From NCBI GenBank assembly GCA_964484655.1, contig CAZAFA010000004.1, positions 1 to 60,852 of the forward strand: a DNA stretch of 60,852 bases, read 5' to 3'. How positions within the stretch are numbered: the stretch's first letter is position 1; the number at the start of each line of letters is the position of its first letter. Below the pieces are notes generated by a model that was not told the DNA's origin, did no database searches, and was given only the letters and a program-made list of their open reading frames with translations. This document shows, piece by piece, positions 3-57,956 of this stretch. The DNA comes from an uncultured Candidatus Saccharibacteria bacterium (GTDB lineage: Bacteria; Patescibacteriota; Minisyncoccia; UBA6257; 2-01-FULL-56-20). Position numbers and translations under genes: made by a program.

Positions 3-1223
3 ATGTCGCTGCGCATCCTCTTCTCGCTCCGCTCGTGGAGCGAGAAGCACCGCCCGCAGCTCGTCCTCTCGAACGCGGCCGGCCTCTCGCGGCTCGGCAC
101 GTACGTGGCGTACGCGGTCCTGGCCGTCGTCATCGCTGAGACGCACGGAGCATGGACGAGCGGCCTGGTCATAGGCCTCCTCAACCTCTATCAGGCGCTC
201 ATCGCGGACCCGCTCGCGGGAGGTCTCGCGGACCGCCTCGGGAGCAAGGCGGTCGTCGTCATCGGCTGCCTGGTCATCGCGCTCACCGGACTGCTGTGGA
301 TCGCGCTGCCGACCACCCTGCCCGTGCTCGTGGGCACCAGCGTCCTCCTCTTCACCGCGTACAGCTTCCGCGACGAGGTGTACGCCTACCTCCTCCGCAT
401 GAGCGGTCCCAGCGAAGGCGGCTTCGTCTTCGGCATCGCCGAGAACGTCTTCTCGCTGATGGCGTTCCTGAGCACAATCGCGATCCCCTTCTTCCTGGCA
501 CCCGGACGCTGGCCGCTCGTCGGCCTCATGCTGCTGCTGACCTCAACGGCCGCGGCGCTCCTCGCCGCTTCCGCACCGAGCGACAAGGGGCGCGCGAGCG
601 CGTACTACTCCCCGCTCGCGTCGATCCGGGCCGGCTGGCACTTCGTCCGCGCGAACCGCATGGTCCCGCTCCTACAGCTGGGATATTCGGCGTTCGAAGG
701 CCTCTTCTACGGCGCCGTCTGGTTCGTGATCCCGTTGCAGATCGCGCTCGACTCGTCAGGGATCCTCGGCGGCCTGTCGCTGGGCGTCTACGAGCTGGTG
801 ACGATCCTCGGCGCGGCGTACGCGGGCTACCTCGCGGACAGGTACGCCTGGTCGCGGCTGAACGTCCTCGGCTGGACGCTCGCCTCTCTCGGGTCGGTGC
901 TACTCCTCTTCTCGAGCGCGACCTGGTGGCTCGTCGTCGCGGGCGCCGTGGTAGCGGTCGGCAACAACCTGTTCGCGTTCGCGAGCAGCCATGCGCTCGA
1001 GGCGAACGACCGCGACCACGAGGAGGACGGCGCCTTCATCGGGCTGAACAACCTGGTCGAGGACCTCGGCTACGGCATCTCGCCGCTCGTGATCGGCTTC
1101 CTGTATGCGCGCGGCGGCTTCGATGCCGGCATGGGCTTCGCCGCTGTGGTGACGGTCGCGCTCGCGGCGCTCATGATCCTGCTGACGCGCCGTATCGCTC
1201 CGGCCTCGGCCAGCCTAAACTGA
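3..1223 (+). CDS. Major facilitator superfamily transporter
   Basis: 406 aa, about 12 hydrophobic segments; MFS motif A-like GGLADRLGSK, with a second copy GYLADRYAWS in the C-terminal half. Confidence 0.8.
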   Translation: MSLRILFSLRSWSEKHRPQLVLSNAAGLSRLGTYVAYAVLAVVIAETHGAWTSGLVIGLLNLYQALIADPLAGGLADRLGSKAVVVIGCLVIALTGLLWIALPTTLPVLVGTSVLLFTAYSFRDEVYAYLLRMSGPSEGGFVFGIAENVFSLMAFLSTIAIPFFLAPGRWPLVGLMLLLTSTAAALLAASAPSDKGRASAYYSPLASIRAGWHFVRANRMVPLLQLGYSAFEGLFYGAVWFVIPLQIALDSSGILGGLSLGVYELVTILGAAYAGYLADRYAWSRLNVLGWTLASLGSVLLLFSSATWWLVVAGAVVAVGNNLFAFASSHALEANDRDHEEDGAFIGLNNLVEDLGYGISPLVIGFLYARGGFDAGMGFAAVVTVALAALMILLTRRIAPASASLN

Positions 1224-1227
1224 GGGC

Positions 1228-2742
1228 ATGCCCATCCTCCGCGCGGTAGACCGCTACCTCAACGGCATCGTCATGTACAAGGCGGTGCTCTACGCGCTGC
1301 TGCTCCTGACAGGCATCGCGATCCTGCTCGGGACGTTCGGCATGCTCCCTTTCAGCGGCGCGAACCTGGCGCTCTCGCTGCTCGTGCTCTTCATGGTCAC
1401 CTGGTTCGCGAACCAGTTCTGCGCGTGGATCTTCGGCGTCTCGGCGAATCCCGAGTCCGCTCCGATCACGGCAGCCATCCTCTTCTTCGTGCTCGCACCG
1501 GCCGAGAGCTTGCAAGGCGCCGCTCTGCTCGCCCTCGCGGGCGCCGTCGCGATGGCGAGCAAGTACGTGCTCGCCATCCGGCGCCAGCACGTCTTCAACC
1601 CGGCCGCGATCGCGGCGGTGATCGTCGGCATCCCGACGGGCATCGCTTCCTGGTGGGTCGGCACGCCCGCGCTGCTCGTGCCGGTCCTGGTCCTCTCGCT
1701 CCTCGTCGCGCGCAAGATCCGCCGCTTCGAGCTCGTGGGCGTCGTCCTGCTCGCAGGAGCGCTGGCGACCGCGGTCATGGCGCTCGCGTCATACGGACAG
1801 GCGCTGGACTCGGCCCTGTGGCGCTTCCTTATCTCCGGCCCGGCGCTCTTCTTCGCCGCGTTCATGGTCACCGAGCCGTTCACGTCGCCCGGCACGCGCC
1901 GCGCGCGCCTGCTCTTCGGCGCCGGCGTGGGCGCGCTCGCCTACCTCCCGCTCCATCTCGGGCCGCTGTTCGCGACGCCCGAGCTCGCGCTCTGCCTCGG
2001 CAATGCCGCGGCATTCGCGCTCTCCATGCGACGGCGCGTCATGCTGACGCTCACCGACAAGGAGGAGATCGCGAAGGACACGTTCGCCTTCCGCTTCGTG
2101 ACCCCGCACATGCCCCGCTTCTCCGCGGGCCAGTACCTCGAATGGACGCTGCCCCACGTCCCGGACGATCGCGGCATCAGGCGCTACTTCACCATCGCCG
2201 CGGCGCCGACCGAGTCCGAGCTTCAGATCGGGGTCAAGTTCTTCCCTGACGGCAGCTCGTTCAAGAAGGCGCTCGGTGAGCTCGAGCCGGGGGCGCGCCT
2301 GTACGCGGCGCAGCTCGGCGGGGACTTCGTGCTGCCAGCCGATCCTGACAGGAAGCTGGCCTTCATCGCGGGCGGCATCGGCGTGACCCCGTTCAGGAGT
2401 ATGGTCAGGCATCTCATCGACCTCGGCGAGAAGCGCAACATAACGCTGTTCTACGCGACACGGACGGATGCCGAGATCGCGTACCGCCCGCTCTGGGAGG
2501 AAGCCGCGGCGCAGCTTCCCTTCCGCATGATCCGCGTCCTCGCCGACGAGGATGCGCGCGCGGACGACGCGGAACACGGCTTCGTCACGCACGAGATGCT
2601 GCGGCGGCGCCTCCCGGACTGGCAGGAGCGCGACTTCTACCTCTCGGGACCGGATGCGATGGTGCAGACGTACAAGCACCTTCTCCGCGGCATGGGCGTC
2701 GCGGACGCGCGTATTCACACCGACTACTTCCCCGGCTTCTGA
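1228..2742 (+). CDS. RnfD/NqrB-like membrane domain fused to a ferredoxin-NADP reductase-like FAD/NAD(P) oxidoreductase
   Basis: N-terminal multi-TM region with KYVLAIRRQHVFNPAA and FFAAFMVTEPFTSP (RnfD/NqrB-like). C-terminal FNR motifs RYFTIAA, GGIGVTPF, YLSGPDAMV. TAAACT lies 6 nt before the ATG. Confidence 0.8.
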   Translation: MPILRAVDRYLNGIVMYKAVLYALLLLTGIAILLGTFGMLPFSGANLALSLLVLFMVTWFANQFCAWIFGVSANPESAPITAAILFFVLAPAESLQGAALLALAGAVAMASKYVLAIRRQHVFNPAAIAAVIVGIPTGIASWWVGTPALLVPVLVLSLLVARKIRRFELVGVVLLAGALATAVMALASYGQALDSALWRFLISGPALFFAAFMVTEPFTSPGTRRARLLFGAGVGALAYLPLHLGPLFATPELALCLGNAAAFALSMRRRVMLTLTDKEEIAKDTFAFRFVTPHMPRFSAGQYLEWTLPHVPDDRGIRRYFTIAAAPTESELQIGVKFFPDGSSFKKALGELEPGARLYAAQLGGDFVLPADPDRKLAFIAGGIGVTPFRSMVRHLIDLGEKRNITLFYATRTDAEIAYRPLWEEAAAQLPFRMIRVLADEDARADDAEHGFVTHEMLRRRLPDWQERDFYLSGPDAMVQTYKHLLRGMGVADARIHTDYFPGF

Positions 2743-3611
2743 TGGAGCCGCGCCGCTTCGCGTACGAGTCGATGGGCTCGCACTGGCAGGTCGCGCTCTG
2801 GGACGCGCCCGCCGAGACGGCAGCCGAGCTCGAGCGGCAGGTTATCTCCGCCTCGCAGGAGTTCGACGAGACCTACTCGCGATTCAAGCGGAACTCGTTG
2901 GTCTGGGACCTCGCCGACCGGACCGGCACCTTCGCGGTGCCCGCAGACCTCGTCACGATGCTCCGGCTCTACCTCGACCTGTACGAGCCGAGCGGCAGGA
3001 AGCTCAATCCCCTCATCGGGCATACCATCGCCGACCTCGGCTACGACGACGCGTACTCGCTCACGCCCAAGGACGTGATCCGGAACACGCCGGACCTGCT
3101 CGAGAGCGTGCGCGTCGTCGACGACGGGCACATCGAGCTCCGCCGCCCGGCGCTCATCGACCTCGGCGCGCTCGGCAAGGGGTTCTTCGTGGACCGCATC
3201 GCGGCGATGGTCGAGGAGGCGGGCGTCACGCGGTATCTCGTCGACGGCAGCGGCGATATCCGGTACCGCGGTCCCGAGCCGCTGGCCGTCGGCCTCGAGG
3301 ACCCGCGCGACGATACGCGCGCGATCGGCGTGATGCGGATTTCCGGAGGCGCGGTCTGCGCATCGGGAGTGAACCGGCGCGCGTGGCGCGACCTGCACCA
3401 CGTTATCGACCCGCACGACTCGCGTCCGACGCGAGGCATACTGGCCACCTGGGCGCATGCTCCGACCGCCGCCCTCGCGGACGGCCTCGCCTCATGCCTG
3501 TTCTTCGCGGATCCCGAGACGCTGAGGACGCAGTTCCCGATGGAATACTGCGTCCTCTACGACGACGGGACCGCGGCGGTCTCCCCCGGGTTCCCCGGGG
3601 AGCTGTTCTAG
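2742..3611 (+). CDS. apbE: FAD:protein FMN transferase (ApbE family)
   Basis: Motifs MGS, FSRFKRNS-like TYSRFKRNS, IDLGALGKGF, VDGSGDI, HHVIDP, TAALADGLAS. Start overlaps the upstream stop (TGATG). Confidence 0.9.
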   Translation: MEPRRFAYESMGSHWQVALWDAPAETAAELERQVISASQEFDETYSRFKRNSLVWDLADRTGTFAVPADLVTMLRLYLDLYEPSGRKLNPLIGHTIADLGYDDAYSLTPKDVIRNTPDLLESVRVVDDGHIELRRPALIDLGALGKGFFVDRIAAMVEEAGVTRYLVDGSGDIRYRGPEPLAVGLEDPRDDTRAIGVMRISGGAVCASGVNRRAWRDLHHVIDPHDSRPTRGILATWAHAPTAALADGLASCLFFADPETLRTQFPMEYCVLYDDGTAAVSPGFPGELF

Positions 3612-4096
3612 CTGCGGGCTTCCGCCTTGATCTTGGCGACGGCGTCCATGAAGCCGATCGGCGTGAGCGACGAGCCGTTCACGACGCCGAGCTGGAGGCT
3701 GTCGATGTTCTTGCCGATCACCTGCGTCCGGTATCCGGCCGCGAACTTGTCCTGCAGCAGCTTGCTCGTCGCATTCTCTGTATTGCCGGCGAAGGTGGCG
3801 TCGGTGATGACGTCGCCCTTGAGCGTGAGGCTGACCATCACGCTCTCGCCGCCGCCCGGCGAGGTGTACGAGCCGTTCGCGCGGTACGTACCGTCGCGAT
3901 ACGCCGTAGCGGGAGCTCCGGCCGCAGGCGCGCTCTCGGAGGTGCTGGTCGGAGCGGAGCTGTCGTCGGGCACGGTCAGAGCCTCTTCCTGCTCGGGCGT
4001 GCGGCCATAGCCGAACGCCCAGGCGAGGCCGGCGCCGATCACGGCGATGCCGAGGATCGCGCCGACAATCTTGGGGGTCTTCGATGTGGTATTCAT
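3608..4096 (-). CDS. Membrane-anchored FMN-binding (flavinylation substrate) protein
   Basis: N-terminal TM, Ser/Ala/Pro linker, then YRDGTY...GSYTSPGG...VNGSSLT, resembling actinobacterial-type FMN_bind proteins. Adjacent to apbE. Confidence 0.75.
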   Translation of the reverse strand: MNTTSKTPKIVGAILGIAVIGAGLAWAFGYGRTPEQEEALTVPDDSSAPTSTSESAPAAGAPATAYRDGTYRANGSYTSPGGGESVMVSLTLKGDVITDATFAGNTENATSKLLQDKFAAGYRTQVIGKNIDSLQLGVVNGSSLTPIGFMDAVAKIKAEARS

Positions 4097-4164
4097 AGGC
4101 GCCCCATGATACCAGGAATGCCCTGGCCGTGGTGAAACCAGCGGTATATGATGCCGCCGACGCA

Positions 4165-4237: not shown

Positions 4238-4280
4238 CCGATTTTATCGGGATTTTATCCGCGAGGAGTATGATGCAGCC

Positions 4281-4565
4281 ATGAGGGTCGCCGAGCTCGC
4301 CGAACAGGTCTCAAAGCAGTTCGTATTCTTCGAGCAGAAGTTCGATGCGATAGATCGCAGGTTCGACGACGTCGACCTGCGCTTCGAGAAAGTCGACCTG
4401 AGATTCGACTCCTTGGAGCGCCTCATGCTGCACCTCCACGACGAGACCATGACCGAGCTCCGCGCCATGCGACAGGAGAACGTCATGTGCGACGGCCGCC
4501 TCGACCGGCACGAGCGGTGGATCGGGCAGCTCGCCGACCGCACCGACACGCGCCTCGAGAGCTAG
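4281..4565 (+). CDS. Small heptad-repeat coiled-coil protein
   Basis: Four 7-aa repeats FDAIDRR/FDDVDLR/FEKVDLR/FDSLERL; TATGAT 6 nt before the ATG. Confidence 0.7.
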   Translation: MRVAELAEQVSKQFVFFEQKFDAIDRRFDDVDLRFEKVDLRFDSLERLMLHLHDETMTELRAMRQENVMCDGRLDRHERWIGQLADRTDTRLES

Positions 4566-5895: not shown

Positions 5896-5971
5896 AGATG
5901 TACTCCCGGAAACCTCGAAAGTCTATTGCTTGCCTGGATACTCAACCTGTGTCCTGGTATATTCTGCGTAC

Positions 5972-6058: not shown

Positions 6059-6101
6059 CCTGCATTATCTTCCCTTCTCCGACTCGGCTACTATCCCTCA
6101 C

Positions 6102-6599
6102 ATGCGCTATCTCGCCGGAGACGAGGAGAAGGCGGCGATCGGCTACATGGAGGAAGCCGCCGAAGTCGCGCAGCACGCGCTCTGTCTCAAGGCGCGCTGC
6201 GGCACGGTGATCGTCCGCGACGGCGCCGTCATCGGATCAGGCTACAACGCGCCGCCGCTCGACGATCCGCGCAACCGCACCTGCGACCAGGCTTACGACA
6301 AGCCGGGCAAGCCGCTCTACGACCGCACCTGCTGCATCCACGCCGAATGGCGCGCCATCATGGACGCGTTGCGCAACCACCCCGGTAAGCTGCCCGGCTC
6401 GCAGCTTTACTTCTCGCGCGTGGACCAGGACGGGAATATCAAGCGCGCGGGCGACCCGTACTGCACCGTCTGCAGCCGCCTCGCGCTCGATGCGGGCATC
6501 GCGGAATTCCTCCTCTGGCACGAAACGGGAATCTGCTCGTATCCGACGGACGAATACAACCGGCTCTCGTACGACTACGTCGATCCAGCAACCGCTTAG
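6102..6599 (+). CDS. Zn-dependent cytidine/dCMP deaminase family protein
   Basis: HAE and PYCTVC zinc motifs, GSGYNAP. Start moved to 6102 because the ORF-track start lies inside tRNA-Ser; TACTAT is 7 nt upstream. Confidence 0.85.
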   Translation: MRYLAGDEEKAAIGYMEEAAEVAQHALCLKARCGTVIVRDGAVIGSGYNAPPLDDPRNRTCDQAYDKPGKPLYDRTCCIHAEWRAIMDALRNHPGKLPGSQLYFSRVDQDGNIKRAGDPYCTVCSRLALDAGIAEFLLWHETGICSYPTDEYNRLSYDYVDPATA

Positions 6600-7816: not shown

Positions 7817-10237
7817 TCAGCGCCCGGTCTGCGTATCGTTGGTCAGGGTTGGCAAGCTATTTGGCAAGGGTTTCGTTCCCTGTTGGGATACATCTCCTAC
7901 GCACATGTTTGGACCCTGATGAAGCCCAGGGAACTGGATGCTCGCTACCTTCTTCCCTAGCGGGTTGAGCATCCGGTCGCGACAGGAGCTCATGCTGCTG
8001 TCCCTGCCCGGGAAGATGTTCTCGGGACTGTCGGTATGCGTGGCAGCGAAATACACTTCGCGCGAGCCACGCAGCGTGACTCCGCTGTCGCGCGCGTATG
8101 TCGCGTCAGCGAATACGTTATTAGCACTGAGGAGGTAGGTCTTCCCTGCGACATACAAGCCTTCGGTAAGGTCGCTGTCGCGGACAAAGATCGGGAAGGG
8201 CGCCCACCCATTCCTCCAGTGAACGTAGAGCGCATGCTTCGTGTTCCTGGCACTCATGTTCTCGATGCGGATGCCGGACTGCCGTTCGATGGATACGCAC
8301 GCACCTGCCCGTCCATCGACGTTGTTGACGATTCCCTGGACGCCGGTGCAGGTCAGTCCCCTGAACGAGAGGTGCCCGCCGCCGTTGATGACTACGCCTG
8401 CCTGATCGCGCTGCATGCCGCTGATGACTATATCCTCGAGGTTCCAGTTCGAGCTGTTCTGGGTCTTGAACTCCATGCCACGCTGGTTGCCGACGAGGCG
8501 AATATTGCGAGCCGCTACCGAGTCCACTTGCGGCTGGGCGTGACCAAACGTTCCGGTGTCGTGCGTGACATAGAAACCGCGCGTGAATCCAGAAATCTCG
8601 AGGTTGGAGAAGCTATGATCGCTGCTCACGCCGCGATCTCCTGAGATCTCGATAGCAGTGGTATTCTGCGAAAGTGCATTCGCCGCCACCGCGCGGAGGA
8701 CCATGTTGTCTATATGGAGGGATCGTGGCGAAATCGGCATTGACTGCAGGGCGCGCAGCTGGAACAAAGGCCGATTGGTGCCGGTGAACTCTACGATTGC
8801 ACCGTTCTCTCCCTGGATCATGATGCCGGGGCCGAGGGCCAGGGTCCCGCTGACGCGGTAGCGGCCCTCGGGGAAGATGATGATGCTCCGCTGCCATACG
8901 GCAGGATTGTCCCGCAGCGCACGGCGTATGGCCTCCGTGTCATCCGTGATGCCATCTCCCTTCGCGCCATACGCCTTCACGTTGAACCTCGCGTCACGGG
9001 CGATGGTATCGATGCCGGCGAAGCTCAGACTCCCTTTCGCGAATTGAGCGCGCACTGCCGATACGTCGAGGTTGCAGGCACCCGGCTGCCGGTTCAGCCC
9101 CGGGAATCCCTGGCTGGGAACCGCGGTGTACGGATTGCCCGTCGAGAACACGTCGCCGCAGCTATATACCTGCGATCCCGTTCCGGTTCCCGTGAAGCGG
9201 ATGCGGCCGCCCTTCGTCGCTTCCGTGAAGAATCGGTTCCCAAACGTGTAGAGAGTACTCCTTCTCTCTACGGTCCCCATGATCGCCGAGTTATCAAAAT
9301 AGATGGCGTGCGGCGAAGTCTCGGTGATGCGGAATCCTTCCTTCGGTCCCTCGACGTGCGCTTCCATGAAGTAGAGCTCGCCCGACCGCTGTCCTATCTC
9401 CATGCAGCTCTCGGCATTGAAATGCGTAGAGGCGCATGAAAGCTGCAGGAAGGACATACGACCGGCTCGCACTAGATTGACACCGTACTGGCCATGATCC
9501 ATCTCGACGACGTTCAAGTTCTGCACGTCCCAATCCTGCGCGTTCAGGCTGTTCACGTGGAGCGCCACGTGGTTCACATATGTCGAGATATTACGCATCC
9601 GCACCTGCGTAACTGCCGGATTCCGTGAGGAGCGCTTCGGTCCTGCAGCAATGGCATAGGTAAAATTCGTGATGCGTAGATTCTCCAGCTCTATCTCGCT
9701 TGTACGCTGGGAGGAACGGTCATCGCCGAGCCGTATGCCGGTGGTCTGCTCCTCGCGGATCCTCGTAATGTCGGTGCGCGGATACACATTCCATCCTGGC
9801 GTCATCGAGCGAAGCTCGATGTTGCGAATGCGTACGTTGCGCGCTCCCTGCTGCACTTCAAGGAGAGCCTTCCCTTGTGCGTTCAAGCTCCCCTGGGCGC
9901 CTAGTACTAGCATGCACGGCCCCACCTCTCCCGAACCTGATCCCTGAATCGTGATATTCGAGGGAACCACGATCGTATCGGTGACCATGTATTTGCCCGG
10001 TCCGAAGAAGAGCACGCCTCCACCTTGTGCGGAAAGTTTGCTGATACCTGAACGGATCTCCGCCGTAGCATCCACGTACGTATCGATGGTCCTGCCCTTT
10101 ATCTCGATGAGCTGAGCTCCACCATTACCACCTGGGAAGTTGAGCGCATCTGCAAGGTACGGCGCCGCGAGCGCAATGACGCCGGCTACGATCGCTACCG
10201 CGCTAGCAAACGCGGTGATTTTGGGGGAGATCCTCAT
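7817..10237 (-). CDS. Secreted protein with two tandem Pectate_lyase_3-like right-handed beta-helix domains
   Basis: Signal peptide; domain 1 DATAEIRSGI...GGGVLFFGPGKY; domain 2 FNVKAYGAKGDGITDDTEAIRRAL...FPEGRY; internal duplication visible. Confidence 0.75.
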   Translation of the reverse strand: MRISPKITAFASAVAIVAGVIALAAPYLADALNFPGGNGGAQLIEIKGRTIDTYVDATAEIRSGISKLSAQGGGVLFFGPGKYMVTDTIVVPSNITIQGSGSGEVGPCMLVLGAQGSLNAQGKALLEVQQGARNVRIRNIELRSMTPGWNVYPRTDITRIREEQTTGIRLGDDRSSQRTSEIELENLRITNFTYAIAAGPKRSSRNPAVTQVRMRNISTYVNHVALHVNSLNAQDWDVQNLNVVEMDHGQYGVNLVRAGRMSFLQLSCASTHFNAESCMEIGQRSGELYFMEAHVEGPKEGFRITETSPHAIYFDNSAIMGTVERRSTLYTFGNRFFTEATKGGRIRFTGTGTGSQVYSCGDVFSTGNPYTAVPSQGFPGLNRQPGACNLDVSAVRAQFAKGSLSFAGIDTIARDARFNVKAYGAKGDGITDDTEAIRRALRDNPAVWQRSIIIFPEGRYRVSGTLALGPGIMIQGENGAIVEFTGTNRPLFQLRALQSMPISPRSLHIDNMVLRAVAANALSQNTTAIEISGDRGVSSDHSFSNLEISGFTRGFYVTHDTGTFGHAQPQVDSVAARNIRLVGNQRGMEFKTQNSSNWNLEDIVISGMQRDQAGVVINGGGHLSFRGLTCTGVQGIVNNVDGRAGACVSIERQSGIRIENMSARNTKHALYVHWRNGWAPFPIFVRDSDLTEGLYVAGKTYLLSANNVFADATYARDSGVTLRGSREVYFAATHTDSPENIFPGRDSSMSSCRDRMLNPLGKKVASIQFPGLHQGPNMCVGDVSQQGTKPLPNSLPTLTNDTQTGR

Positions 10238-10261
10238 ATCCCCATCATAGCATCTGACCTA

Positions 10262-10855
10262 CTACCCTTCGTATTCCGCCTCTACCTGCTTCCAGTTGAC
10301 CACGTCCCACCACGCCTTCACATAGTCCGCGCGCAGGTGGCGATAGTCGAGGTAGTAGGCGTGCTCCCAGACGTCCAGGCCGAGAATCGGCACGGGGCCG
10401 CCTTCGGATACCGGCGTGTCCTGGTTCGCACTCGTCGCGATCGAGAGGTCGGGCATGAGCCAGGACCAGCCGCTCCCGAACACGCCGAGCGACTTCTCAG
10501 AATACTGGTCGACGAACGCCTGGAAGCTCCCGTACTTCGCGACCAGGTCCGCGCCGAGCTTTCCGCCCGGCTCGCCGCCGCCGTCCGGGGCCATCCACGT
10601 CCAGAAGCGCGAGTGGTTGTAATGGCCGCCGCCCAGGTTGCGGACGGCATTCCGGATGCCGTCCGGCAGTGCCGGCACGCGACGCAGCAGCTCCTCGATT
10701 GGGAGCGCCGCGAGCTCGGGCGCGTCCTTGAGAGCAGCGTTGAGCTTGTCGACGTAGATGCGGTGATGCTTGTCGTGATGGGTCTCCATCACGTCGCGGC
10801 TGAGCGCCTTCTTCAGGTCGTCGTAGCCGTACGGGAGTTCGGGAAGCGCGTGCAT
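10262..10855 (-). CDS. sodA: Superoxide dismutase, probably Mn-type
   Basis: HHDKHH, GGGHYNHSRFW, FGSGW, ANQD and DVWEHAYY. GGH plus NQD are Mn-SOD-type signatures. Confidence 0.93.
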   Translation of the reverse strand: MHALPELPYGYDDLKKALSRDVMETHHDKHHRIYVDKLNAALKDAPELAALPIEELLRRVPALPDGIRNAVRNLGGGHYNHSRFWTWMAPDGGGEPGGKLGADLVAKYGSFQAFVDQYSEKSLGVFGSGWSWLMPDLSIATSANQDTPVSEGGPVPILGLDVWEHAYYLDYRHLRADYVKAWWDVVNWKQVEAEYEG

Positions 10856-10864
10856 GGGACCAGT

Positions 10865-13459
<2,595 letters not shown>

Positions 13460-13522
13460 GGTGCTACACTACCAGATGCCCGGAGGGGCGTCAGCGCAGA
13501 CCTCCCTTGCCGTCTTACAGAC

Positions 13523-44185: not shown

Positions 44186-44218
44186 GGCGCTATTGTACCC
44201 CGTCGCCCCCACGGGCGC

Positions 44219-45660: not shown

Positions 45661-46025
45661 TGTTGCGCCCAGGACATAGCTGCTACCCGAGGTGCTGCCG
45701 TACATGTACGCGGCTCCCTGCCGGGGATCGTCAGGCACCTTCGAGACGCCGAGGTTGCTGCCGGTGAGTGCTCCCTGAAGGGAAGACCAGCCGCTGATGG
45801 CCGAGAAGCCCGTGCAATCCGTGCCCGCCTGCGCACCGCCCGGGTAATAGCCGCACTTCGCGTAGTAGAGTTCGACGCCGTTCTGCACCTGGCGCAGGTC
45901 GCTGATGCGGCGGGTGTCACGGCCGTTGCGCTGCACCGGGCCGAGGCCGACGAGGGCCACGGAGGCGAGCGTCGCGATGATCGCGATGACGATGAGGATC
46001 TCGACGAGGGTGAAGCCGCGGCGAG
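45408..46025. repeat. 148-bp perfect direct repeat (45408-45555 = 45878-46025)
   Basis: Base-by-base identity over the pilin N-terminal coding region; offset 470 bp. Confidence 0.95.
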
Positions 46026-46041
46026 TGGGGTTAGAGGGCAT
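45565..46041 (-). CDS. Type IVa major pilin-like protein 2
   Basis: Same N-terminus as pilin 1; divergent centre; TATACT 6 nt before the ATG. Confidence 0.92.
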   Translation of the reverse strand: MPSNPTRRGFTLVEILIVIAIIATLASVALVGLGPVQRNGRDTRRISDLRQVQNGVELYYAKCGYYPGGAQAGTDCTGFSAISGWSSLQGALTGSNLGVSKVPDDPRQGAAYMYGSTSGSSYVLGATLENANAPQLRDDIDGTVEGVNCADPVYCVQL

Positions 46042-46099
46042 GGCCGAAGTATACCAGAGAGGCGTAGGAAGCTGTGGAAAGCAGGACGCTAGCAGCCCC

Positions 46100-47311
46100 T
46101 TACTGAATCGTAGCGGTGAGGCGATACAGTGGGATGAGGATAGACGCGAACAGCAGGCCGACCAGCAGACCGACCACGATCATGAGCGTTGGCTGGATGA
46201 GGTCGACGAGGTTCGAGATCGTCGTGTCGGAATCACGGCCGTAGAAGCCTGCGAGGCGCGCGAACATGCGGTCAAGCTGGCCGGTCGCCTCCCCAACGAC
46301 CACCATCTGTGAGACCAGCGGCGGGAAGTAGTCCGGATACTTCGCCAGTGACGAGGAGAGCGAGGTCCCCTGGCGGACGTCGTCGGCGACGTCCATGAGC
46401 AGGTCCTGGTAGAGCACGTTGTTCACGCTTTGGCCGGCGATCTCGAGCGCCTGCGCCATCGGCACGCCTCCCTTAAGGAGCATCGCGATGGCGTTCGAGA
46501 GGCGCGTGAGCGTCAGCGGGAGGAAGACGCGCTTGAGCAGCGGAAAGCGCAGCTTGAGCTCGTCCCAGAGCGCCTTGCCCTCGTCGGTCTCGGCATAGGC
46601 GATGATCGTGAGGACCACGAAGAACCCGAGGAGCACGACCGCGGGCCACCACGTCCCGAAGAACGCGCCGGCGCCGAGGAGGGCACGCGTATAGAACGGG
46701 AGATCAACGCCGCTCTCGGCGAATACCGGCCCCAGCTGCGGGAACACGAAGCTCACCATGAGGAAGCCGACGACGACGAAGAGGCCGCCGATGATGCCCG
46801 GATAGATCATCGCCGAGCGCGCCTTCGTGATGAGCTCGTACTCCTTCTCCATGTAGTCGGCGAGGAAGCCGGTGACCTCCTCGAGGTTGCCGATGACTTC
46901 CGCCGAGCGGATCATGCTCACGTAGAAGCCCGGGAAGACGTCGCGGTGCCGCTCGAGCGCCTGCGAGAAGGAGAGGCCCGAGGTGATGTCCTCGGCGAGC
47001 TGCTGCACGATGCGGCGGAGCTCGGGCTGGTTCGTCTGCCCGTGGAGCGTCTTGAGCGCCTCGATCAGCGGCAGGCGGGCGCCGAGCAGCGTGGCGAACT
47101 GCCGCGCGAAGATGACCAGGTCCTTCTGCCGCACGCCCGTGAAGCGGCGCACGACGGCGTCATACCAGTGCTTCGAGTCGGCGGAGACCAGCGACAGGAT
47201 GAAGAGGTCGTGGCTCGTGAGGATCGTGATCGCCGCATCGCGGCCGGCCGCCTCGACGAAACCCACCTGGAGCTCGCCTTCCTTCGTCTTGGCCTGGTAC
47301 TTGAAGCGCAT
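46100..47311 (-). CDS. pilC: Type IV pilus platform protein
   Basis: Two T2SSF domains; FARQFATLLGARLP, SAEVIGNLE, GVPMAQAL, GEATGQLD. Confidence 0.95.
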   Translation of the reverse strand: MRFKYQAKTKEGELQVGFVEAAGRDAAITILTSHDLFILSLVSADSKHWYDAVVRRFTGVRQKDLVIFARQFATLLGARLPLIEALKTLHGQTNQPELRRIVQQLAEDITSGLSFSQALERHRDVFPGFYVSMIRSAEVIGNLEEVTGFLADYMEKEYELITKARSAMIYPGIIGGLFVVVGFLMVSFVFPQLGPVFAESGVDLPFYTRALLGAGAFFGTWWPAVVLLGFFVVLTIIAYAETDEGKALWDELKLRFPLLKRVFLPLTLTRLSNAIAMLLKGGVPMAQALEIAGQSVNNVLYQDLLMDVADDVRQGTSLSSSLAKYPDYFPPLVSQMVVVGEATGQLDRMFARLAGFYGRDSDTTISNLVDLIQPTLMIVVGLLVGLLFASILIPLYRLTATIQ

Positions 47312-47340
47312 CTACGGCCGCATTCTAGCAAATTCCCTAT

Positions 47341-47668
47341 AAAGACGTGTCCCCTCATGGGCGTGAGGGGACAGGAAGGTTTTTCACTCAGGGCGAGCTC
47401 GGAAGGGCGGTATGCGCTCTGTCAGGCATCATGGCAACGCAGCACGGGGCGCCTCCCACTGTCCGCAAGGGGTCCGCGGATTCGTAGAGAGCGCTGGCAT
47501 GCTGCCTGACGCAGGGGGGACCACCTTGATATGGGGGGTCGCTTGCTAGCAAGTATCTCCGGCTGAGATTAAGCCGTTTGTATGACGCGCGGGGTTATGA
47601 ACGATATGAATACGCGCGCCTACTGATTCCATCCTAACACGATATCTCCCGCTCGCGCGGGAGATATC
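47341..47668. other. Structured, ORF-free intergenic region inside the pilus locus
   Basis: Hairpins at 47348-47373 (10 bp) and 47641-47668 (12 bp); long-range stem 47421-47433/47498-47510; palindrome 47542-47553. Confidence 0.55.
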
Positions 47669-47690
47669 CACATTCATGAACTGCCAGCGC

Positions 47691-50190: not shown

Positions 50191-50655
50191 CTATTTGTTA
50201 GTGATCGGCCGAGCCGGCGACTGCATCAGCGTTACATTGACCACGGTCTTCCCGCCCCCGATCTCGAAGGCCGTCAGGAGCTGCGTGGCATCCTTCTCGG
50301 CGAGGAGTGTGGCGCGCTGCGGCGGCGTCGCAGTCTCATCGAGAATCGTCCAGCCGTTCTCCTGGAAGTACGCGACGTAGCCAGCCTTGTGTTCCTCGAG
50401 TCCCTCGTCGGTGAGATAGACCTGCGTCCACTGCGCGGAGCGGCCGTCGCCGGCCATGAAGTTCTGTAGGATGGCTCCGTCGCGGTCGAAGGGGAGCCCC
50501 TGCGGGAACACGGAATCGACCTCCTCGAGGGAGGTCGCCTGGCCGGTCTCGACCGGCTTCTCTCTGTGATAGCTCCAGTAGATGCCTGCGACGAGGAGGA
50601 GCACCAACGCCGCTACGGCCGCGGCCCGGACCCGGGTATCTTGGAATCCGTTCAT
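50191..50655 (-). CDS. Small membrane-anchored protein (cassette copy 2 partner)
   Basis: N-terminal TM; FPQGLP...ILQN...VAYFQENGWTI; TATAAT 6 nt before the ATG. Confidence 0.75.
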   Translation of the reverse strand: MNGFQDTRVRAAAVAALVLLLVAGIYWSYHREKPVETGQATSLEEVDSVFPQGLPFDRDGAILQNFMAGDGRSAQWTQVYLTDEGLEEHKAGYVAYFQENGWTILDETATPPQRATLLAEKDATQLLTAFEIGGGKTVVNVTLMQSPARPITNK

Positions 50656-50698
50656 GTGCGCATTATACCATGCGCGCTATCCCCAGATTCCGCGGGCC

Positions 50699-51769
50699 TC
50701 AGATGCGCTCGAGCAGGATGCGCAGCTCGCTCGGGTTGAGCGAGTACGTCTCGGCCACTTCCAACGTCGCCTGCTGGTCGCGCACCAGGCGCGCGAGAGA
50801 GCGGTTGAGCGAGACCATCCCCTCCTGGAGGCTCGTCTCGATGACGAGATCGATCTCGTAGAACTTCCGCTCGCGGATGAGGTTCTTGATGGCGGAATTC
50901 ACGATCATCACCTCGAGCGCCGGGACGCGCCCGCCGCCGTTGCGCGGCACGAGGCGCTGGCTGACGATCGCCACGAGCGTGGAAGCGAGCTGGCTGACCA
51001 CCTGCCCCTGCTGCTCGGGCGGGAACGAGTCCACGATGCGGTCGATGGTCTGCGAGGCGGAGTTGGTGTGCAGCGTCGAGAAGACGAGGTGGCCCGTCTC
51101 GGCGGCGGACATCGCGGTCGCGATGGAGGCCCCGTCGCGCATCTCGCCGATCATGACCACGTCCGGGTCCTGGCGCAGGATGGTGCGCAGGCCGTCGGCG
51201 AAGCTCGCGGTGTCGGAGCCGACCTCGCGCTGGCTGACGATCGCGCGGTCCTGCGCGAAGACGTACTCGATCGGGTCCTCGACGGTGATGATGTGGTCCG
51301 CGCGCGTGTGGTTCACCTCGTCGAGCAGCGCCGCGAGCGTCGTGGACTTGCCGTGGCCGGCGGGGCCGACGAGCAGGATGAAGCCCTGGGTGAGCTTCGT
51401 GAAATCATGCAGGATCGGCGGCAGGCCGAGCTCCTCGACGGTGCGAATCGTGCTCGGCACGAGACGGAGCGCCGCGGCGAGATAGCCGCGCTGGTAGTAC
51501 ACGTTCGCGCGGAAGCGCGCCTTCTCCTCGAGCGTGTACGCGAAGTCCACCTGGCGGTCCCGCTGCAGGATCTCCTTCTGTATCGGCGTGAGGAGCTCCA
51601 TGGTGAGGCCCTCTGCGGCCTCCGGGGTCACGAGGTCGTACTGCTGGAGCTCGATGAGCGCTCCGTCGACGCGGATGGACGGGCGGCGCCCGACGGCGAT
51701 GTGAAGGTCCGACGCGTTCTGCTGCGCGGTCGCGACGAGCAGGTCCGCGAGCTGCTGGCGGTAATCCAT
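50699..51769 (-). CDS. pilT: Type IV pilus retraction ATPase
   Basis: GPAGHGKSTT, EDPIE, RQDPDV, AETGHLVFSTLHT, AIKNLIRE. Confidence 0.95.
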   Translation of the reverse strand: MDYRQQLADLLVATAQQNASDLHIAVGRRPSIRVDGALIELQQYDLVTPEAAEGLTMELLTPIQKEILQRDRQVDFAYTLEEKARFRANVYYQRGYLAAALRLVPSTIRTVEELGLPPILHDFTKLTQGFILLVGPAGHGKSTTLAALLDEVNHTRADHIITVEDPIEYVFAQDRAIVSQREVGSDTASFADGLRTILRQDPDVVMIGEMRDGASIATAMSAAETGHLVFSTLHTNSASQTIDRIVDSFPPEQQGQVVSQLASTLVAIVSQRLVPRNGGGRVPALEVMIVNSAIKNLIRERKFYEIDLVIETSLQEGMVSLNRSLARLVRDQQATLEVAETYSLNPSELRILLERI

Positions 51770-51806
51770 GCGCGCATTGTAGCAGGCGCGCGCCGGCAAC
51801 GCTCGG

Positions 51807-54990: not shown

Positions 54991-55608
54991 CTAAGGAGTG
55001 GCGGGAGCGGCGCTGGGCTCGGGACTAGGCGCCGGGCTGGACGAGAGGGACTGCGACGCGGCCGTGAAAAAGCCCTGGACCACGGTTATCGCGATGTCGA
55101 ACTGGTAACCGCCCGCGAGCGCCTGGCTGTTGCGGAAGTCGACGCGCTCGATGCCGGGACGCGCCTGGAAGGCGGCAACCTGGAGCGCGACGTCGGCCTG
55201 CGTCCGGGCTATGCCCGTGACCTGGATTTGGCGCGAGGCCACGTTCATCGAGACCTTGGTCAGCCGGACCGACTGCAGGGTGCCGTCCTCGATCCAGGAC
55301 AGGAACGCCGGCGTCGCCGTGTGCTTGGCGAGCGCGGTCTTCAGGTTAGCCAGCTGCGAATAGAACGTGAGGATCGCCGCCTGCTGGTCCGCGGGGACCC
55401 TGCGACTGAAATCGCTGATCTCCTGGTCGAGCCCGCTGACCTGCTTCTCGAGGTAGGGGTGATAGCCGAACGTGATGCCGAAATACACCACGACCGTCAG
55501 GACGAGGAGCATGATCGCGAAGCCCATGAGCTGCCCGAACCATGCGGGAGAACGGGGGGCGCGCTCGACGACCTGCGCGTACGACGGCTGCTGCTGCGGG
55601 AGCGCCAT
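54991..55608 (-). CDS. pilN: Type IV pilus alignment protein PilN
   Basis: TM, coiled coil, fimbrial-assembly-like domain; lies between pilM and pilO. Confidence 0.75.
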   Translation of the reverse strand: MALPQQQPSYAQVVERAPRSPAWFGQLMGFAIMLLVLTVVVYFGITFGYHPYLEKQVSGLDQEISDFSRRVPADQQAAILTFYSQLANLKTALAKHTATPAFLSWIEDGTLQSVRLTKVSMNVASRQIQVTGIARTQADVALQVAAFQARPGIERVDFRNSQALAGGYQFDIAITVVQGFFTAASQSLSSSPAPSPEPSAAPATP

Positions 55609-55642
55609 GCACCAACTATATCACATCAGGCAGGGCGATCCG

Positions 55643-56722
55643 TCACGAAACGGCAGGCAACGCGAGGCCGAGCGCGAGCGCGAGCGACGGATTGAGATCC
55701 GGCAGGAGCGGCTCGACGCCGGCCGGGTACTCGAAGCGGTACAGCGGCGCCGCGCGCGAGACCGGCAGCTGCAACGCGTTGCCGAGCTGTGCCTCGATAC
55801 CGCGCAGGTTCGCTCCCGCGCCGGTGAGGAGTACGCGCTCGATGCCGATACGGCGCTGGAAGCGCGACTCGAACGTGTAGATCGCCTTGCGGATCTCGCC
55901 GAGGACCGCGTCCACCGCCGGGAGCGCGACCGCGGCGAGGTCGCGTCCGGCGCCGTCGCCTACGATGCCGTGCGCGTGCTTGAGCGCGTCCGCGCGAACC
56001 GGGCTCAGGCCGAGCGCGCCGGACAGGGCCTGCGTGACGAGGTCGCCGCCGATGTCCGCCTGTTCGGCGAAGATAAGCTGCCCCCGCTCGGCGACGAGGA
56101 TGCCGGTCGAGAGGGCCCCGATATCGAGGATCATGGTCGTGGTCTGGTCCGGCCCTACCGCGCCGCGCACGAGCGCGAGCTGCTCGATCTCGATGGCCGC
56201 CAGCGAGAGCCCTGCGGCCGCGAACGCCTCGCGGCAGTGCGCCACGTACTCGTTCGGGACCGCGTTGAGCATGACGATGTCGTGCGCCGCGCCGACGTTC
56301 GGCCGGATCTCGCCGACCTTCAGCCACTGCAGCGCGACCTCGCTCAGTGGCACGGGGATATAGGAGCGCGCCTGGAACGTGAGCGCCTGCTCGAGCTCGC
56401 GCTCCTGCATCTGGGGCAGGTCGAGGATCGCCGTGAAGTTCACGAACGGCGGAACCGACGCGATAGCCGAGCGGGCAGAGAACTTGCCCTTCTCGAGCGC
56501 GAGCTTGAGCAGCTCGGTCAGCTGGCCCGGCGACAGCTTCACGCTGCTCGACTGGATCGCGCCGGTCGAGCGAAGCAGACGCGCCTGGTCCTCGAGGAGC
56601 GCGTAGTTGACCAGCGAGGGCAGCTGCTTGCCCCGCGCGAGCTCCACGACCTTGAGCGAGGCCGTCCCGATATCGACGCCGAGCGTCGCGCTCGGCTTCA
56701 TGAAGTTCCCGAAGAAGCTCAT
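55643..56722 (-). CDS. pilM: Type IV pilus assembly protein PilM
   Basis: Actin-like GVDIGTASLK, ILDIGA, LLTGAGA; start set 8 nt after TATACT. Confidence 0.93.
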   Translation of the reverse strand: MSFFGNFMKPSATLGVDIGTASLKVVELARGKQLPSLVNYALLEDQARLLRSTGAIQSSSVKLSPGQLTELLKLALEKGKFSARSAIASVPPFVNFTAILDLPQMQERELEQALTFQARSYIPVPLSEVALQWLKVGEIRPNVGAAHDIVMLNAVPNEYVAHCREAFAAAGLSLAAIEIEQLALVRGAVGPDQTTTMILDIGALSTGILVAERGQLIFAEQADIGGDLVTQALSGALGLSPVRADALKHAHGIVGDGAGRDLAAVALPAVDAVLGEIRKAIYTFESRFQRRIGIERVLLTGAGANLRGIEAQLGNALQLPVSRAAPLYRFEYPAGVEPLLPDLNPSLALALGLALPAVS

Positions 56723-56804
56723 ACGCAGCGAGTATAGCAACGTTTTCATGCCCGCCTCATGCCACGTGCACCGGCGTCTGGCCGCGCGCGCGTACCCTGC
56801 CGGC

Positions 56805-57455
56805 ATGCTCGCCGGCCTGATCCTCGACGCCCTCTTCCCGGACGCGTGCCTCGCCTGCCTGGCGCCGCGCGAGCCGGGACAGCGGCACGACCTCGCCTGC
56901 GACGACTGCCTGCGCGGCGTCGTCCTTCCCGGATCCTTCTCCTGCGCCTCGTGCGATGCGCCTGCCGCCGTGCGGCCGGTATGCCATCCCGACGCGCCTT
57001 CGTCGCTCGTGCTCGGCGCTCCGGGAAGCCGCGTCGTCGGCTCGCTGGCTGACGCGCTCCTCTACGAGGGCATGGAACGCGCCGCCGCGCCGCTCGCGGA
57101 GCTGCTCGCCGGGGCGGCGATCAACGCCGGCCTGCCGCTGCACCGGAGCTTCGCCGCGCCTGTCCCGACGCTTCCCGCCGAGCTGCGGGAGCGCGGCTAC
57201 GACGCGAACCTCGCGCTCGCTTCGGGATGCGCCCGCATGCTCGGCATGCCGCTCGCGCCGCACCTGCTCTGCGTGACGCGCCGGTCGGGCATGAACGCAT
57301 ACGGCATCGGGGACCCGGGCGAGGCGGCCAGCGGCGACCGCGTCATCCTCGTCGGCGCGCAGGTTCCGGGCGAGGCGGCCCTGCATCGCTGTGCGCGGCT
57401 TATCCGCGCCGCTTGCCCGCATGCGACGCCGCTCGTGTTCGCCTGCAGCGGATAA
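56805..57455 (+). CDS. ComF-like double zinc-ribbon protein with a degenerate PRTase domain
   Basis: LFPDACLAC..CDDC..CASC; ERGYD resembles ComF RGFNQ; PRPP motif not canonical; TACCCT 6 nt before the ATG. Confidence 0.72.
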   Translation: MLAGLILDALFPDACLACLAPREPGQRHDLACDDCLRGVVLPGSFSCASCDAPAAVRPVCHPDAPSSLVLGAPGSRVVGSLADALLYEGMERAAAPLAELLAGAAINAGLPLHRSFAAPVPTLPAELRERGYDANLALASGCARMLGMPLAPHLLCVTRRSGMNAYGIGDPGEAASGDRVILVGAQVPGEAALHRCARLIRAACPHATPLVFACSG

Positions 57456-57485
57456 GACCGCATCCGCGCGTGGTACACTGTATCC

Positions 57486-57956
57486 GTGGAGAAGTTCTCT
57501 ATCAGCTGGCACGCGCCCGAGTACGAGCACCGGCCGAAGGACTCCGTATGGTTCTGGGTGTCGATCGCCGTCGCCGTCGGCCTCGTCATCTTCGCGGCCT
57601 TCCAGCGCAACCCCCTCTTCGCCCTATTCGTCATCATCGCGGAGGTCCTCATCATCGTATGGGGCAGCCGGCAACCCGGCGAGTTGCACGTGGTCGCCGA
57701 CCAGACCGGCTTCCATATCGGCACGCACCGCTTCTATCCGCGGAGCCATGTCGACGCCTTCAGCTTCCTCGAGCACCATCACACGGACTGGCAGGACCTG
57801 GTCATCCTCCTGGACCGGCGCTACATCCCGACGATCTCGGTTCGTGTGCCCGGCCATATCGTCCCCGAGCTCCGGGCACATCTTTCCAAGCTCTACCCGG
57901 AGTACGACCACCAGGAATCCTTCGTGGAGATCCTCGAACGCTACTTCTGGTTCTGA
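57486..57956 (+). CDS. Conserved hypothetical membrane protein (two TMs plus a PH-like domain)
   Basis: ISWHAPEYEHRPK..WFW motif; TACACT 6 nt before the GTG. Confidence 0.75.
   Translation: MEKFSISWHAPEYEHRPKDSVWFWVSIAVAVGLVIFAAFQRNPLFALFVIIAEVLIIVWGSRQPGELHVVADQTGFHIGTHRFYPRSHVDAFSFLEHHHTDWQDLVILLDRRYIPTISVRVPGHIVPELRAHLSKLYPEYDHQESFVEILERYFWF

Follow-up and report, generated by a model that had tools for sequence, protein, structure and literature searches.

Leaderless promoters of mycobacteria consist of a -10 element only (TANNNT), with no clear -35 element. In the GeneMarkS-2 classification, group C genomes carry a Pribnow box 6-8 nucleotides (nt) before the first genes in operons, and 25-50% of their transcripts are predicted to be leaderless (Lomsadze et al., 2018; PMC6028130). 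Group C is found mainly in Actinobacteria (90%) and Deinococcus-Thermus (97%), and the text of that survey names no candidate phyla (PMC6028130). For Deinococcus deserti, the survey cites 167 leaderless genes among the 262 with differential RNA sequencing (dRNA-seq) data and verified starts (de Groot et al., 2014). Here we describe a similar arrangement in contig CAZAFA010000004.1, positions 1 to 60,852 (the window, which is the whole stretch of DNA analysed), with a GC content of 67%. TANNNT hexamers stand 5-7 nt before the start codons of about 25 of its genes, counting one with its box immediately beyond the window edge. These Pribnow-like boxes are very probably sigma-70-type -10 elements that start transcription at the A of the ATG, giving leaderless mRNAs. 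A sequence-only reading of this DNA had likened the geometry to that known for leaderless mRNAs in Actinobacteria and Deinococcus, and it matches that of the group C genomes (PMC6028130).

The gene set comprises 61 protein-coding genes, assigned by codon-usage scoring, Pfam and inspection, and five tRNA genes. The sequence-only reading had listed 24 starts with TANNNT at 5-7 nt, 21 of them at exactly 6 nt, and our recount reproduced every one: 21 at 6 nt, two at 7 nt (6102 and 36789) and one at 5 nt (23514). All 24 belong to genes backed by codon-usage scoring and Pfam; 23 begin with ATG and one with GTG (57486), and seven lie on the plus strand and 17 on the minus strand. TANNNT-N6-ATG occurs 22 times on the two strands of the window, compared with 4.08 +/- 2.29 in dinucleotide shuffles, none of which (0/100) reached 22. 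When TANNNT-Nk-ATG was counted blind to genes for k from 0 to 30, we found 22 at k = 6 and 0-7 at all other values. The window contains 284 TANNNT, a number at which 0.14 genes should have one at spacing 6 by chance (Poisson probability of at least 21, ~3e-38). Twenty of the 22 matches are starts of called genes already on the list, and the remaining two are at 6232 (antisense) and 47632 (in a gap without genes). The spacing peak holds for ATG only, with none for GTG or TTG in the window or in the labelled Patescibacteria loci described below, as expected if a 5'-terminal AUG is needed. Among the 31 box-linked starts in the window, 30 are ATG and one is GTG. One further case came from beyond the window: gene 1, an MFS transporter gene with its ATG at 3 (1-5, plus strand), has a TAGAAT-N6 box just left of the window, where public contig L163 (367 nt beyond the left edge) reads TAGAAT-gactcc-ATG (sequence gcgcTAGAATgactccATG). 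As this box was found outside the window, an out-of-sample prediction held.

The hexamer had also been described as rare in this DNA, which is true in relative terms only: TANNNT occurs once per ~430 nt per strand, 27% under the first-order Markov expectation (284 observed against 390 in the whole window). This scarcity could reflect selection against stray -10 boxes if no -35 element is needed. Seven of the eight TACAAT in the window precede genes, and strong versions of the box are almost confined to such positions.

We aligned the 21 spacing-6 sites, numbered them relative to the start codon and scored features that had not been used in site selection. C is found at -1 in 19 of the 21 (P = 1e-7), A at -9 in 16 (P = 1.5e-9), G at -14 in 16 (P = 7e-5), T at -15 in 11 (P = 2.5e-4) and G at -6 in 14. 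T(-15) and G(-14) together make up the TGn of an extended -10 element, which 15 of the 31 boxes inside the window possess. C(-1)A(+1)T(+2) forms a pyrimidine-purine-pyrimidine (Y-R-Y) start element whose centre is the seventh base past the -10 hexamer. A Y-R-Y centred 7 bp past the -10 box sets the Escherichia coli transcription start in 93% of cases, and this start element is conserved across 49 bacteria (Kuo et al., PMC12641261). No -35 consensus was seen at the spacing-6 boxes. Good -10 sequences are also found almost entirely at the 5' ends of genes: the zone 4-12 nt upstream of gene and tRNA starts makes up 0.49% of strand positions and contains 13% of all TANNNT, 41% of TAnAnT and 62% of TGnTANNNT (16/26).

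The same boxes stand upstream of all five tRNA genes, 8-12 nt from the mature 5' end in four and 28 nt in one. They read TATGAT at 12 nt (Ala), TGGTATATT at 8 nt (Ser), TACAAT at 11 nt (Asp), TAGAAT at 10 nt (Arg) and TACAAT at 28 nt (Gly), within box regions at 4141-4164, 5955-5971, 34133-34149, 59911-59944 and 60296-60311. In four of the five, RNase P would have to trim only ~1-5 nt from the 5' end of the primary transcript. Their presence before tRNA genes indicates that the motif serves transcription rather than ribosome binding.

We compared the window with five syntenic metagenome contigs, L081 and L165-L168, giving six genomes in all. L165-L168 were retrieved via homologues of ribosomal protein L25, and the relatives have GC contents of 0.52-0.67. 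L081 is a 698-kb contig (GC 0.67; FBA 74% identical) with an N6 peak of its own, 9 compared with ~1.5. The PfkB gene has TGnTACAMT at exactly 6 nt in all six genomes. L25 (spacing 6-7) and the AI-2E transporter (spacing 5-7; TAGAAT or TAGACT in all five relatives) also carry boxes in all six, and TatD does so in five (spacing 6; four relatives). The HD hydrolase (spacing 6-7; relatives L081, L165 and L166) and RpiB (spacing 6; relatives L081, L165 and L167) have boxes in four genomes, and the 33338 gene (spacing 6; relatives L081 and L165) in three. No box precedes FBA, MetRS or Rpe in any of the five relatives, or GAPDH in those that carry it. Since box and spacer sequences vary between genomes, it is the geometry itself that is conserved, and the putative leaderless architecture thus appears to be shared across the lineage of the window organism.

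From the motif, its geometry and statistics, its promoter-like features and its conservation, we infer both the position of transcription start and the mode of translation. TANNNT would be the sigma-70 -10 (Pribnow) element, about half of the time with an extended TGn and with no recognisable -35 element. The box ends at -7, and the Y-R-Y sequence CAT would place the RNA polymerase start on the A of the ATG. The mRNA would have no 5' untranslated region, or one of 2-4 nt where the spacing is 8-10 nt, and ribosome and initiator tRNA would bind the 5'-terminal AUG directly, with no Shine-Dalgarno (SD) interaction. The remaining genes would be mostly translation-coupled, with SD sites at a few and neither box nor SD at about eight.

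Several observations weigh against this interpretation. A scan of the window for canonical -35/-10 promoters gave one match per 20 kb, at or below shuffle expectation; canonical promoters are thus not above chance, and the strength of -35-less promoters is an assumption for the half of the sites that have no TGn. C at -1 is somewhat enriched also at box-less starts (17/30), so part of this signal could be translation context. A clear terminator-like hairpin is found upstream of three box promoters only (20778, 38852 and 47311). Many boxes lie merely 4-50 nt past a same-strand gene, which together with the few terminators makes read-through likely, and box genes are probably also contained in longer read-through transcripts. 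Queries with the pilin/PilC and L25-GAPDH regions matched no public RNA runs.

Boxes precede about 19-22 of the 32 unit-leading genes, a class defined by divergent orientation or by a gap of 30 nt or more to the preceding gene, compared with 8 of the 28 closely packed genes. The sequence-only reading had called leaderless transcription the dominant mode; this fits every sequence test that we ran, but it does not extend to all starts. The box share is ~40% of all genes at 5-7 nt, ~50% when spacings of 8-10 nt are included, and ~60-70% of unit-leading genes.

A rival possibility, which we consider unlikely, is that the boxes are true -10 elements and yet only weak or conditional internal promoters, with most mRNA produced by polycistronic read-through, leaderless transcripts not dominant and the operons not split. 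Long same-strand runs with gaps of 4-50 nt are what such an arrangement would look like, as are the restriction of clear terminator-like hairpins to the three promoters named above and background-like hairpin energies upstream of the others. However, spacing is strictly conserved in six genomes despite sequence turnover, which points to selection on the exact start position, and SD-less genes with gaps of 30-265 nt would have no evident internal translation route if they were read from upstream.

The pilus locus runs on the minus strand from PilM (56722) to ~38900, in the order PilM, PilN, a PilO-like gene, a small gene, PilB, an unknown gene, PilT, two unknown genes, PilC, two pilins, PilD, minor pilins and large surface proteins. 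Boxes are predicted before PilM, PilN, PilT, 50655, PilC, the first pilin, 44185, 43662 and 42574. Apparent operons had been proposed to be split into many separately promoted units; the extra internal promoters are supported, and plausible within this locus, while separate units are supported only in part, with three terminator-like hairpins. One of these, at 38852, is a strong GC hairpin (T-less, -27.7 kcal/mol) that ends 11 nt before the ATG. Upstream hairpin energies at the other box promoters are background-like, and intrinsic terminators gave no evidence of unit boundaries, as window counts were at shuffle level. Convincing terminators are found at 19926-19951, 20815-20840, 20917-20934 and 47348-47373. 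The first, between convergent genes, has a perfect GC-rich stem of 11 bp with T-runs on either strand; it looks like a bidirectional terminator and is among the very few canonical ones in the window. Also within the pilus locus, the tandem pilin genes at 45092-46041 (minus strand) share a near-identical N-terminal region of ~50 residues (RRGFTLVEILIVIAIIATLASVALVGLGPVQRNGRDTRRISDLRQVQNG), and a -10 box at 6 nt is found only before the upstream copy.

To assess SD signals, duplex energies with the canonical anti-SD were calculated upstream of starts and compared with those at random positions and internal ATGs. Mean energies were -2.9 kcal/mol for box genes (12.5% at or below -6), -2.3 kcal/mol for non-box genes (13.9%), -3.15 kcal/mol for random positions (13.5%) and -3.6 kcal/mol for internal in-frame ATGs (15%). 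We therefore found no SD enrichment upstream of genes, box genes included (13% of starts at or below -6 kcal/mol, compared with 13.5% of random positions). At the box genes, no SD site lies between promoter and start, since a 6-nt spacer is too short for one. Folding of the mRNA 5' end did not discriminate between the two classes: in box and non-box genes alike, there is less structure in the first 40 nt than in windows from inside the gene.

Clear SD motifs had been reported at 7743, 30134, 5895 and 19082. An SD-like motif is present at all four, but 30134 is more likely to be a box start, because gcgcTACAAT is conserved at 7-9 nt in four relatives whereas the SD is missing in two of them. 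The 19082 gene (region 19060-19084, plus strand), which encodes a 273-amino-acid (aa) protein with a weak Haem_oxygenas_2 match, has the sole clearly conserved SD site seen: GGAG/AGGAG is kept ~9-11 nt before the start, both in the window and in four relatives (L165-L168), while the flanks diverge. SD sites thus appear to be used clearly at 19082 and probably at 7743 and 5895. The conserved GGAG indicates that SD pairing is probably still used for a minority of genes, and suggests that the 16S rRNA of the window lineage retains an anti-SD. The majority of box-less genes overlap or adjoin the preceding gene (ATGA-type overlaps, gaps of 1-13 nt), which makes translational coupling their likely route. 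About eight starts have neither box nor SD (4622, 13523, 25504/25570, 34086, 35787, 52343, 54956 and 60654). Near-miss hexamers such as TTTAAT, CATACT and ACAAAT occur exactly 6 nt before several box-less starts (e.g., 16492, 34086, 50186), and some of these starts may be leaderless via degenerate or alternative-sigma promoters.

With SD motifs at chance and at least two distant relatives (L084 and L129, see below) without an anti-SD, an alternative start signal would be needed, and the hexamer could in principle act on leadered mRNAs, either as a ribosome-binding signal of non-SD type or as the mark of an unstructured region, as in genomes of GeneMarkS-2 group B (e.g., Bacteroidota). We regard this as very improbable. 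Such boxes are found before tRNA genes as well; RNA polymerase contacts the invariant T, A and T and the TGn, and the Y-R-Y lies exactly 7 nt downstream; moreover, the motif is missing at internal operon genes, whereas group B motifs precede all genes (PMC6028130). A chance or composition artefact, such as codon periodicity or the occurrence of in-frame TAA/TAG stops ahead of first ATGs, is effectively refuted: five of the 21 boxes do open with an in-frame TAA/TAG, and a histogram of the first ATG after an in-frame stop gave in-frame artefacts and odd peaks in a gammaproteobacterial control that was not independent, and was replaced by TAY-only and ORF (open reading frame)-length-filtered counts, but 16 of the 21 boxes are TAY and not stops, the TAY-only unconditioned histogram gives 14 at d = 6 compared with 0-3 elsewhere, the control shows periodicity only, and neither the shuffles nor the Poisson probability given above (~3e-38) leave room for the observed count.

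The starts that the boxes define are also in keeping with the encoded proteins. Pfam domains begin close to the N-termini so defined (domain start residue to profile position: SOD 2 to 2, TatD 5 to 1, L25 3 to 1, RpiB 5 to 1). Start 44185 yields a prepilin leader of normal length, MSRRSG/FTLVE, with residue 1 of the N_methyl motif match at profile position 1, and start 46041 likewise yields one of normal length, MPSNPTRRG/FTLVE. Independent pipeline calls on public contigs gave the same products for 1228 (504 aa), 4281, 55608 (205 aa), 56805 (216 aa) and 57486 (156 aa). The box had been said to correct starts in the ORF track, and at least nine are indeed moved in 61 kb: 6102, 20778, 26243, 28271, 33338, 44185, 51769, 56805 and also LeuRS at 18932. 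For LeuRS, the ORF-track ATG at 18944 falls within the box (TACA/ATG), gcgTACAAT is kept in all five relatives at spacings of 6-10 nt, and the alignment to a relative starts at residue 5; the true start is therefore probably Met5, ATG 18932.

On the plus strand, TAAACT-N6-ATG (1216-1230) precedes an NQR2/RnfD-like FAD/NAD oxidoreductase gene (1228-2742) and overlaps the stop of the upstream MFS gene. TATGAT-N6-ATG (4269-4283) belongs to the gene of a 94-aa protein (4281-4565), TACTAT-N7-ATG (6089-6104) to a cytidine/dCMP deaminase-like gene (6102-6599) and TGATAGACT-N6-ATG (14424-14441) to an HtrA-like trypsin/PDZ protease gene (14439-15476). TATACT-N6-ATG (23556-23570) stands before the HD-domain hydrolase gene (23568-24161), divergent from the minus-strand TAGAAT-N5-ATG (23512-23525) of the AI-2E family transporter gene (22489-23514). 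TACCCT-N6-ATG (56793-56807), before the gene of a ComF-like double-zinc-ribbon protein (56805-57455), is divergent from PilM, and TGGTACACT-N6-GTG (57471-57488), before the gene of a 156-aa membrane protein (57486-57956), is the sole non-ATG case.

On the minus strand, TGCTATGAT-N6-ATG (10235-10252) precedes the gene of an 806-aa pectate-lyase-like surface protein (7817-10237), and TAGACT-N6-ATG (10853-10867) that of an Fe/Mn superoxide dismutase (10262-10855). The latter box (10862-10867) shares its TAG with the stop of the neighbouring P-type cation ATPase gene (10865-13459), which itself starts from TGGTAGTGT-N6-ATG (13457-13474). This ATPase promoter overlaps TGCTACACT on the plus strand at 13462-13470, with boxes TAGTGT (minus strand, 13466-13471) and TACACT (plus strand, 13465-13470); both the shared stop and the overlapping divergent boxes are as the sequence-only reading had claimed. 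In the plus-strand region 13462-13545, this extended -10 is followed after 5 nt by an ATG that opens only 23 codons, and the downstream Gmad2/Germane-domain gene start at 13523 has neither SD nor box; the region may hold an upstream ORF that is itself leaderless, or simply a leader of 46 nt with no SD.

Further along this strand, TACCGT-N6-ATG (20776-20790) lies before the TatD gene (19954-20778), with the hairpin and T-run terminator at 20815-20840 upstream, and TATACT-N6-ATG (26241-26255) before the ribosomal protein L25/Ctc gene (25605-26243). The PfkB sugar kinase gene (27276-28271) has TGGTACAAT-N6-ATG (28269-28286), 4 nt past the TktC stop, and the ribose-5-phosphate isomerase B gene (30791-31237) has TATACT-N6-ATG (31235-31249). 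These two belong to a pentose-phosphate/glycolysis cluster of RpiB, Rpe, TktN, TktC, PfkB and FBA, with GAPDH upstream, whose order is conserved in the relatives with occasional insertions. Transketolase is encoded there as two genes (28276-30134), for an N-terminal part of 286 aa and a C-terminal part of 333 aa. Between GAPDH and RpiB, a membrane-like ORF of 61 aa (31251-31436, minus strand) is called likewise in three relatives (58-63 aa) and is probably a real small protein. TGGTACACT-N6-ATG (33336-33353) precedes the gene of a 289-aa protein without assigned function (32469-33338), TGCTATCAT-N7-ATG (36787-36805) that of a 308-aa protein (35863-36789), and TAGAAT-N6-ATG (38850-38864) the NAD-dependent DNA ligase gene (36813-38852).

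The pilus locus has TACACT-N6-ATG (42572-42586) before the gene of a 158-aa membrane protein (42098-42574), TACAAT-N6-ATG (44183-44197) before a minor pilin gene (43637-44185), TGGTATACT-N6-ATG (46039-46056) before a pilin gene (45565-46041) and TGGTATAAT-N6-ATG (50653-50670) before the gene of a 154-aa membrane protein (50191-50655), followed by TGCTACAAT-N6-ATG (51767-51784) at the PilT-like ATPase gene (50699-51769) and TGATATAGT-N6-ATG (55606-55623) at PilN (54991-55608). One site absent from the earlier list, TATCGT-N5-ATG (59786-59799), precedes an ECF-type sigma factor gene (59234-59788).

Six further genes, all on the minus strand, have a box at 8-10 nt (4096, 18932, 30134, 43662, 47311 and 56722), with predicted leaders of 2-4 nt. 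A pyrimidine-purine step lies 6-8 nt past the box in five of the six, and 30134 has a purine without a preceding pyrimidine. They comprise TGGTATCAT-N9-ATG (4094-4114) before the gene of a 162-aa membrane protein (3608-4096; predicted leader ~4 nt), TACAAT-N10-ATG (18930-18948) at the probable LeuRS start (predicted leader ~3 nt) and TACAAT-N8-ATG (30132-30148) before the N-terminal half of transketolase (29274-30134), where the spacer AGGAGGAG can also be read as an SD. In the pilus locus, TGCTATCGT-N8-ATG (43660-43679) precedes the gene of a 189-aa pilin-like protein (43093-43662; predicted leader ~2 nt), TGCTAGAAT-N10-ATG (47309-47330) precedes PilC (46100-47311; predicted leader ~4 nt; terminator-like hairpin upstream at 47348-47373), and TGCTATACT-N8-ATG (56720-56739) precedes PilM (55643-56722), for which an independent caller chose the start 56749. 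In total, about 32 of the 61 genes have leaderless or near-leaderless geometry.

The 379-nt gap at 47312-47690 (minus strand), between the gene of an 831-aa protein and PilC, contains no genes, two hairpins and the PilC promoter. The TATCGT-N6-ATG at 47632 in this gap opens a 28-codon ORF (MESVGARIHIVHNPARHTNGLISAGDTC), and a search of the gap against Rfam families gave no match. The gap could encode a short leaderless ORF or a small RNA, or serve as a regulatory leader.

Homology searches place the window among the Patescibacteria. In the top 120 LeuRS matches, all named proteins are from Patescibacteria, bar one labelled only 'bacterium', and they span Magasanik-, Buchanan-, Nomura-, Falkow-, Kerfeld-, Uhr- and Taylorbacteria and Parcubacteria. 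For LigA, 18 of the top 19 loci (species-representative genomes) are labelled as Patescibacteria groups and the other one as 'uncultured bacterium'. The closest named match to L25 is from Paceibacterota, at only 43% identity, and 19 further relatives are 57-94% identical. By protein homology, the organism is a high-GC, poorly sampled lineage of Patescibacteria, or candidate phyla radiation (CPR), and neither an actinobacterium nor a Deinococcus. The window itself contains neither rRNA genes nor a ribosomal-protein cluster. Its sequence was found only in DNA runs, from wastewater metagenomes, and the relative L081 in one DNA run.

We extended the search to labelled Patescibacteria loci totalling 403 kb (GC 0.48), with the count limited to ATGs that begin an open frame of at least 100 codons. 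TANNNT-ATG spacings peak at 6 and 7 nt, with 65 and 72 cases compared with a background of ~28, and the gammaproteobacterial control showed nothing beyond codon periodicity. At spacing 6, there is a pyrimidine at -1 in 55 of the 65, and TGn is present in 29%, compared with 5-7% at control spacings. Of 79 FBA orthologues from metagenomes, 35 carry a box 6-7 nt upstream of the aligned N-terminal ATG, more distant PfkB orthologues have one 5-7 nt before the candidate start in 23 of 31, and LigA has one at the aligned N-terminus in ~8 of 23 labelled Patescibacteria orthologues. The internal genes TktN and TktC have a box before the candidate start in 5/32 and 5/23 cases, respectively. For the LigA and FBA loci, histograms of raw spacing were too noisy in AT-rich genomes.

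Two distant relatives of the FBA locus, L084 and L129, have 16S 3' ends without the CCTCC anti-SD (L084 ...GGAUUAAUUAAAU, 16S at 17393-18912; L129 ...GGACUAAUUAAAC, 16S at 8271-10099 and about 11036-11085). The 3' readings are ...GGATTAATTAAAT and ...GGACTAATTAAAC in place of ...GGATCACCTCCTT. In L129, the Rfam match stops ~1 kb short of the conserved 16S 3'-terminal motif, a distance that suggests an insertion close to the 3' terminus of this gene. L084, with its anti-SD-less 16S, has several TATAAT-N6/7-ATG starts. CCTCCT has been reported in only 48% of Parcubacteria 16S genes, with the consequence for translation start left open and leaderless mRNAs not mentioned (Tsurumaki et al., 2022; PMC9297842). 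The 6-7-nt peak in the labelled loci, the boxes of FBA and PfkB orthologues and the L084 starts raise the possibility, which we put forward tentatively and at somewhat less than even chances, that leaderless initiation from -35-less, often extended -10 promoters is general and ancestral across Patescibacteria/CPR and could have allowed the loss of the anti-SD in a subgroup of Parcubacteria. In the literature searched, we found no paper linking leaderless mRNAs to Patescibacteria, CPR, Saccharibacteria, Parcubacteria or TM7x, which is not proof of absence.

If true, this would offer a testable answer to how CPR lineages without an anti-SD start translation. A very large radiation would then join the groups rich in leaderless genes (Actinobacteria, Deinococcus-Thermus and many archaea), with a bearing on the question of ancestral leaderless initiation. 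The programs that call gene starts in CPR metagenome-assembled genomes are tuned to SD sites, and misplaced N-termini affect the prediction of signal peptides and prepilin leaders; among the starts corrected here are those of LeuRS, PilT and a pilin. Genetic tools for Patescibacteria are just emerging, and TGnTAnAAT followed by 6 nt and ATG may be a complete expression signal that could serve as a design rule for reporters and complementation constructs.

Compared with group C genomes, the window has the same geometry, with its peak at 6 nt, but other genes in group C use SD sites, whereas SD motifs in the window are at chance frequency overall. It resembles D. deserti in its high GC content and in the many annotated starts that, in the published accounts cited in PMC6028130, needed correction there. 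It differs in that starts and N-termini were measured in D. deserti, while those of the window are read from sequence alone, and in phylum, lifestyle and genome size; the ~0.7-Mb contig of a relative suggests that the genome of the window lineage is tiny. In mycobacteria, too, transcription starts have been mapped by experiment (as cited in PMC6028130). Mycobacterium tuberculosis and M. smegmatis share with the window the Y-R start and the 5'-terminal AUG or GUG (Cortes, 2013; Shell, 2015; as cited in PMC6028130 and PMC12641261), but as described in those sources, mycobacteria are leaderless in roughly a quarter to 40% of operons, with SD sites common elsewhere. With its TGn and no -35 consensus, the window also resembles the extended -10 (TGnTATAAT) sigma-70 promoters of E. 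coli and Firmicutes, in which the -35 is dispensable. Those normally produce leadered mRNAs, whereas in the window the discriminator runs straight into the start codon. The Parcubacteria of PMC9297842 belong to the same superphylum as the window, and L084 and L129 are, like some of them, without an anti-SD, in contrast to the window lineage, which is suggested to keep it by the GGAG at 19082 orthologues. Archaeal leaderless genes (GeneMarkS-2 group D) also start transcription at the start codon without an SD, but from TATA and transcription factor B recognition elements (TATA/BRE) ~26 nt upstream, where the window would use a bacterial -10 box at 6 nt. The mechanism is thus already known from other groups, and it is the phylum that is apparently new.

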